A stretch of 64,000 nt of DNA. Source: Escherichia coli. Its GTDB lineage: Bacteria > Pseudomonadota > Gammaproteobacteria > Enterobacterales > Enterobacteriaceae. Position 1 is the first letter of the stretch. Each line of letters opens with the position of its first letter. Under the pieces are notes generated by a model, which was not told the DNA's origin, made no database searches, and saw only the letters and a program-made list of their open reading frames with translations. A program made the position numbers and the translations under genes. Below are positions 32,526 to 32,791 of this stretch, piece after piece. The stretch lies in NCBI RefSeq assembly GCF_003334355.1, contig NZ_QOWP01000002.1. One strand, 5' to 3'.

Positions 32526-32726
32526 ATGCAACACGAACTACAGCCTGATTCACTGGTTGATTTGAAATTCATCATGGCCGATACTGGCTTCGGTAAAACC
32601 TTCATCTACGACCGAATTAAGTCCGGCGACCTGCCAAAAGCCAAAGTTATCCACGGTCGAGCAAGATGGTTATATCGTGACCATTGTGAATTCAAAAATA
32701 AGCTCTTAAGCCGCGCCAATGGGTAA
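32526..32726 (+). CDS. torI: TorI, prophage excisionase / TorR inhibitor
   Basis: 66 aa MQHELQPDSLVDLKFIMADTGFGKTFIYDRIKSGDLPKAKVIHGRARWLYRDHCEFKNKLLSRANG, as recalled for K-12 TorI. Confidence 0.9.
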   Translation: MQHELQPDSLVDLKFIMADTGFGKTFIYDRIKSGDLPKAKVIHGRARWLYRDHCEFKNKLLSRANG

Positions 32727-32791
32727 AATAGCGGGTAAAATATTTCTCACATCTAAAAAACACCATTCCAATCAATCCCCTGCCGCTTCAA

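Follow-up and report, generated by a model that had tools for sequence, protein, structure and literature searches.

The 64-kb stretch of Escherichia coli DNA analyzed here (the window) contains torI, the gene of an excisionase or recombination directionality factor (RDF), followed by a 16-nt core sequence (CTGCAGGGGACACCAT) and then by the host genes dsdC and dsdX (Table 1). The product of torI is the counterpart of HkaC of phage HK620, which has been described as identical to TorI (PMC3509656), and the same gene carries the torI annotation in E. coli RefSeq genomes. The core is the sequence quoted for the KplE1 prophage (PMC2951348), has a single exact match in the window, and is the point at which the likeness of the window to the attP of HK620 stops. 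Because torI is upstream of the core and dsdC follows it, the site is the attR of a prophage integrated at argW, in agreement with the preliminary description of this DNA. Neither a tRNA gene nor a second core is present in the 64-kb window, and the prophage's own int gene and attL are not within it; they lie upstream of its start, and the cognate integrase is deduced from relatives. The first 25 kb of the window match the P22-like phages CUS-3, Kapi1 and phiv205-1, and the prophage is thus a long P22-like relative of the KplE1 (CPS-53) remnant of E. coli K-12. Of 5426 complete E. coli genomes, 1404 carry the same attR arm.

Table 1. Features of the attR region, and arm-type motif positions in phage attP sites (distances from TGCAGGGGACA)
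Feature	Position	Strand or orientation	Remarks
torI (excisionase/RDF) gene, 66 aa	32526..32726	+	ORF; product 100% identical to HK620 HkaC
Equivalent of the published 135-bp linear attR substrate	32703..32837	+	primers attR-IHF2 and attR-XbaI mapped
Arm-type site P1, distal copy (putative)	32721..32730	+	conserved core GGGTAAA at 32721-32727; -80 from TGCAGGGGACA
Arm-type site P2, proximal copy (putative)	32733..32742	+	conserved core G(G/A)GTAAAA at 32733-32740; -68 from core; wholly non-coding
IHF-like site AATCAATCCCCTG (candidate)	32770..32782	+	1 mismatch to WATCAANNNNTTR; between arm sites and core
Perfect 8-nt inverted repeat TCCCCTGC / GCAGGGGA	32776-32783 and 32802-32809		18 nt between arms; right arm in core
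16-nt core CTGCAGGGGACACCAT	32800..32815	+	3' end of tRNA argW; strand-exchange site; phage/host boundary of attR
dsdC	32910-33851	minus	downstream of core; then dsdX
P-arm sites (the window's two copies)	-80, -68	direct	five attPs
P'-arm direct sites	+130, +141	direct	five attPs
P'-arm inverted sites	+158/159, +173/174	inverted	last one abuts the int ATG

A direct repeat at the end of torI

Between torI and the core are two exact copies of the 10-mer GGGTAAAATA, the only two in the window. They are separated by GC and therefore have a start-to-start period of 12, and the sequence around them reads ...GCC AAT GGG TAA AAT AGC GGG TAA AAT ATT TCT... on the + strand. The first copy consists in part of the last torI codon, GGG (Gly66), and the TAA stop (32724-32726); the core is 68-80 bp downstream of the repeats, followed by dsdC. 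The preliminary description, which had noticed both the two identical 10-mers and their overlap with the end of torI, was accurate on each count. The bare repeat is statistically weak and common by chance: 5 loci in the window have an exact 10-mer that recurs at an offset of 10-30, and at least one such repeat occurred in 141 of 200 dinucleotide shuffles. Copies of GGGTAAAATA with one mismatch are not enriched in the window (7 found, 3.1 expected). It is because of its position, its conservation and its attP context that the pair amounts to more than chance. Other short-range exact direct repeats of 10-11 nt in the window are found at 21177-21215 (TTAATGCTATT, offset 27) and 43089-43120 (TCAAATTTAC, offset 22).

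Not all of the 10-mer is conserved. In an alignment of the P arm of HK620, four phages of Erwinia and Klebsiella, and the window, the ATA that ends the first copy and the GC spacer differ among the distant relatives (the spacer reads ATAGC, TGCGC or GTAAC), as do the flanks. The conserved unit is therefore about 7-8 bp, YGGGTAAA(A), and not the entire 10-mer.

The repeats lie within a functional attR

A linear attR that recombines in vitro has been made with primers attR-IHF2 and attR-XbaI (PMC3509656, PMC2951348). Primer attR-IHF2 (CTCTTAAGCCGCGCCAATGG) maps to 32703-32722 of the window, and the mapped product has 135 bp, the published size, so that 18 bp of the functional attR precede the first copy of GGGTAAAATA and both copies are included. 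The preliminary description proposed comparison with published KplE1 attR sites: over the repeats K-12 (BW25113) and the window have the same attR sequence, with GGGTAAAATAGCGGGTAAAATA as the 22 bp just after torI, and across 32703-32837 a single base distinguishes them, which is not in the repeats. Among the E. coli variants that were sampled, those that diverge most have 5-6 differences per 126 bp (95% identity), all of them outside the 22 bp of the repeats. In the GenBank record of HK620, the equivalent 23 bp and the int-proximal copies of the motif are labelled 'repeat_region attP'. As printed in PMC3509656, primer attR-XbaI (…GGGATAAACACACAAGGATG) has an extra CA relative to both window positions 32813-32837 and K-12 BW25113 (…GGGATAAACACAAGGATG); since the genomic sequence fits the 135-bp product, the extra CA is probably a typographical slip.

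For attL, the arm-type P' sites of IntS have been reported to contain TAAA in every case, with P'1 overlapping the -10 box of the int promoter PintS, and TAAA was mutated in these sites by the same authors (PMC2951348); the four copies of the motif found upstream of int in attP (see below) fit this description. The attL also has five TorI sites, GTTCG, GATCG or GTCCG, in two blocks (PMC2951348). No att-site primers are listed in the supplements of PMC2951348, and no attR site detail was found in the other citing papers. The window's repeats share TAAA with the attL arm sites.

The KplE1/HK620 module and its protein-binding sites were reportedly mapped by experiment between 2007 and 2010 by Panis and coworkers. 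Panis et al. in 2007 (J Biol Chem) are said to have mapped both the IntS arm sites and the IHF sites on attR, and the IntS footprint on attR probably corresponds to exactly these two copies of GGGTAAAATA.

Six sites at fixed distances in attP

The attP of HK620, from the xis stop to the int start, was compared with those of Midgardsormr38 and vB_EhrS_49 (Erwinia phages) and RCIP0114 and Chronis (Klebsiella phages). The four Erwinia and Klebsiella phages have approximately 76-79% DNA identity to this region of the window, and their Int proteins are 76-84% identical to HK620 Int. In each of the five attPs the motif G[GA][GA]TAAA (GRRTAAA) occurs exactly six times and at the same distances from TGCAGGGGACA (Table 1); thus the repeats of the window recur in homologous attachment sites, at -80 and -68, and one motif that is distinct from the core is found in both arms of all five phages, with two copies in the P arm and four in the P' arm. 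GRRTAAA has a background frequency of 41 hits in 128 kb of strand, so that a 300-bp attP should contain 0.19 by chance; six in one attP corresponds to a Poisson P of approximately 6e-8.

In the non-coding P arm, the alignment columns without any variation are grouped in the two sites, CAA.CCCCTGC and the core, with divergence between them. The conservation of the first copy is partly confounded by coding, as it contains a Gly codon and a stop. The C-terminal tails of TorI differ (SRANG, NCLNG, NNPNG, SRSDG) while GGG-TAA is invariant, which points to constraint at the DNA level, and the second copy, which is outside the torI coding sequence, is as conserved as the first. Such data bear on the possibility that the repeat is a functionless product of chance or slippage, conserved because torI is encoded there and a small overlapping ORF begins at the same place. 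A single short-range exact 10-mer repeat is indeed common by chance, the first copy does overlap the end of torI, and a small ORF starting there is annotated in the records of HK620 (hkaB), Sf6 (gene 17), Midgardsormr38 (ORF36) and g341c (gene 18); however, the second copy is not part of torI and is equally conserved, the same motif occurs four more times by int and switches there in concert (see below), and the small ORF is cut to 22 aa in vB_EhrS_49 and has no start codon in phages phiEt88 and S.Inf 5-2. This explanation is therefore considered very improbable.

The small ORF itself has an equivalent in the window, an hkaB-like frame of 49 codons at 32719-32868 (+), whose ATG overlaps the torI stop and which runs through the core into host DNA. 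Because it is truncated or startless in relatives, it is probably an annotation artefact, and hkaB/gene 17 was rejected as a candidate since the frame is not conserved as an ORF.

Two further features lie in the stretch from the arm sites to the core. The IHF-like site is not significant as a match on its own, there being 85 matches to the IHF consensus in the window compared to 74 expected. It is conserved, however, the CAA.CCCCTGC segment being invariant in HK620, the four relatives and the window, and the name of primer attR-IHF2 implies that there is an IHF site within the published substrate. The left arm of the 8-nt inverted repeat, TCCCCTGC, is kept in all relatives, being approximately 9 nt farther from the core in the g341c group, and the inverted repeat may belong to an IHF site or provide the integrase with an additional core-type site.

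Co-variation of the arm motif with the integrase

A scan of IMG/VR by integrase alignment yielded prophage ends that were 98-99% identical, with attP in only 3 of 80 loci, and was uninformative for co-variation; divergent relatives were therefore taken from a collection of GenBank phages. In phiEt88 (Erwinia) and in g341c and S.Inf 5-2 (Salmonella), the motif is GGGCATA, at -80, -68, +130, +141, +160 and +174: all six sites have switched and none has relocated. The integrases of these three phages are 61-75% identical overall, and about 56% over the N-terminal 90 residues. The first 90 residues of the integrases fall into the same two groups as the arm motifs, ...LLDSNGLYLYVPVSGKKVWQLRYK... 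versus ...LADSGGLFL.PP.GKKVWR.RYR.... In HK620 Int, residues 2-86 match the Pfam domain Arm-DNA-bind_3 (PF13356; E = 1.2e-24); an N-terminal arm-binding domain is thus present in HK620 Int, and the link to the window is by homology of the module. The arm motif changes along with this domain of the integrase. Because the two motif classes represent essentially one evolutionary switch, the co-variation counts as qualitative evidence.

The same phages separate the integrase from the RDF. The RDFs of g341c and phiEt88 are 49% and 36% identical to TorI, respectively, and at the same five RDF positions g341c has pentamers like GTTCG/GTTCT and phiEt88 has GTAAC/GTTAC; since these phages share GGGCATA despite different RDFs and RDF motifs, the repeat tracks the integrase and not the RDF. 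The specificity of the integrase for its arms and that of the RDF for its sites seem to be modules that can be exchanged independently. The xis gene of phiEt88, g341c and S.Inf 5-2 ends approximately 10 bp before the first site, with no overlap of its stop codon. The overlap with the torI stop is therefore incidental, because the site is fixed relative to the core while the end of xis moves.

These observations decide against the reading of the repeats as TorI sites that bend attR toward excision, as Xis does on lambda attR. Direct repeats about one helical turn apart beside an RDF gene are a typical arrangement of RDF sites, and RDF binding was among the options put forward in the preliminary description; but the five published sites (GTTCG, GATCG, GTCCG) are all in attL (PMC2951348; PMC3509656), the pentamers of the HK620 P' arm match their published spacing (20 in block 1, 10 in block 2, 63 between the blocks), and both strands of 32690-32830 are free of these pentamers. 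The torI-proximal arm, where the repeat lies, becomes attR, whereas it is the int-proximal arm that becomes attL, and phiEt88 and g341c have GGGCATA in common while their RDFs and RDF-position motifs differ. The TorI-site reading, with pentamers, arm location and dependence on the RDF all against it, was rejected as most unlikely.

Another alternative is that the A/T-rich repeats are not integrase sites but are recognized by a host nucleoid protein (IHF or Fis) or serve as a -10-like element (TAAAAT). The primer at this edge of attR is called attR-IHF2, TAAAAT resembles a -10 hexamer, and P'1 of attL overlaps a -10 box. However, no sigma-70-like promoter was found in 32200-33000, the best match of the arm to the IHF consensus is elsewhere, at 32770-32782, and sites of host factors would not be expected to become GGGCATA in concert with the integrase domain of the phage; there is very little likelihood that this alternative is correct. 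A structured RNA, for instance an sRNA or a terminator at the 3' end of torI, is hardly conceivable: the repeat is at the 3' end of a gene, but there is no Rfam match over the repeats (no E-value elsewhere in the stretch is below 0.16), in the RNA fold of 32700-32830 (z = -1.09) the repeats are mostly unpaired, with one weak local stem touching them, and no terminator-like site was found downstream of torI.

Probable arm-type sites of an IntS-family integrase

The two copies of GGGTAAAATA are thus very probably P1 and P2, the arm-type sites for the N-terminal domain of an IntS-family tyrosine integrase, in the P arm (attR) of a KplE1/HK620/CUS-3-type prophage integrated at argW. Such naming of the sites as P1 and P2 follows the style of lambda. 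The preliminary description had left open whether the array was one of RDF sites or of integrase arm-type sites: the integrase is strongly favored by a motif that recurs by int at fixed distances from the core and co-varies with Arm-DNA-bind_3, and the RDF is disfavored by the absence of TorI pentamers from 32690-32830 and by a repeat that is the same across differing RDF motifs.

The motif architecture is conserved, co-varies with the integrase domain and is included in the published minimal attR; from this we infer physical binding, a geometry of bridging and a role of IHF as follows. The integrase would be heterobivalent, with its C-terminal catalytic domain on the core (32800-32815) and its N-terminal Arm-DNA-bind_3 domain docked on the GGGTAAA motifs 68 and 80 bp from the core. 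A bend between the arm sites and the core, probably produced by IHF at approximately 32770-32782, would allow protomers to bridge arm and core, and two protomers on P1 and P2 could contact core sites either in cis or in trans. With the four arm sites of attL and the five TorI sites covered by a TorI filament, the attR arm would form an intasome for excision of the prophage or integration of attP. A second, weaker possibility is that IntS occupying P1, and with it the torI stop, would block or feed back on read-through from torI into int once attP has been excised.

The repeats are a real but ordinary feature, already known, of a characterized recombination module. For annotation, the bounds of a functional attR can be set from the repeat, the IHF-like site and the core, and the prophage therefore looks competent for excision, at least at its right end.

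Comparison with related recombination modules

The module of KplE1, HK620, Sf6 and CUS-3 at argW has the same 16-nt core, an identical TorI and the same dsdC flank as the window. K-12 KplE1 is a remnant of 10 kb, whereas here the prophage is long and similar to CUS-3, Kapi1 and phiv205-1; the repeat itself is unaffected.

In lambda, Int likewise has short repeats in both arms (P1, P2, P'1-P'3) that are far from the core; the N-terminal domain of the integrase likewise reads the arms, and a site for a bending protein likewise lies between arm and core, both of which are predicted here. Lambda Int bridges arm and core with the help of IHF, the heterobivalent logic that is proposed here as well. 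The motif is another one in lambda; here it is GGGTAAA, with two P-arm sites and four P'-arm sites, two of the four inverted. The N-terminal domain of lambda Int belongs to its own family, in contrast to the Arm-DNA-bind_3 domain of P4-type integrases found here. Lambda Xis acts on attR, whereas the RDF sites of KplE1-type modules are on the int-proximal arm and hence in attL (PMC3509656).

The sister modules with GGGCATA, namely those of phiEt88 and of the Salmonella phages g341c, S.Inf 5-2 and Emek, share with the window's module the argW-type core TGCAGGGGACA, the six site positions and the gene order xis-attP-int, and differ in the arm motif, in a diverged integrase, and in a first site that is clear of the xis stop. 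It is possible, and is suggested here only tentatively, that the P1/P2 pair belongs to a six-site 'arm code' that is swapped wholesale along with the Arm-DNA-bind_3 domain of the integrase. If so, phages that compete for one attB would carry orthogonal intasomes without cross-excision, and a comparison of the two natural classes would show which residues recognize the arm motif. No description of the switch from GGGTAAA to GGGCATA was found in the literature searched, and the two-class arm code at fixed positions is the only point of this analysis that is mildly new. As a natural swap of specificity, the two motif classes could guide the engineering of orthogonal integrases.

Other features of the window

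Upstream of torI are three intrinsic-terminator-like hairpins, at 32229-32290 and 32457-32484 (+), the last of which (AAGCCGCC-TGAT-GGCGGTTT, with a T-run) ends approximately 40 nt before the torI ATG. In the HK620 record, the corresponding stretch carries a cII-dependent 'integration' promoter. These hairpins are relevant to the silence of torI in the lysogen. Elsewhere, a cluster of short direct repeats at 24955-25060 (TATTGTCTTTTGT twice, TTTTACCGAAT-like three to four times) lies within a minus-strand ORF (24586-25416; 276 aa) just upstream of a gene for a DnaB-like helicase (23213-24589), and looks like a set of origin iterons inside a gene for a replication initiator of the lambda O type.
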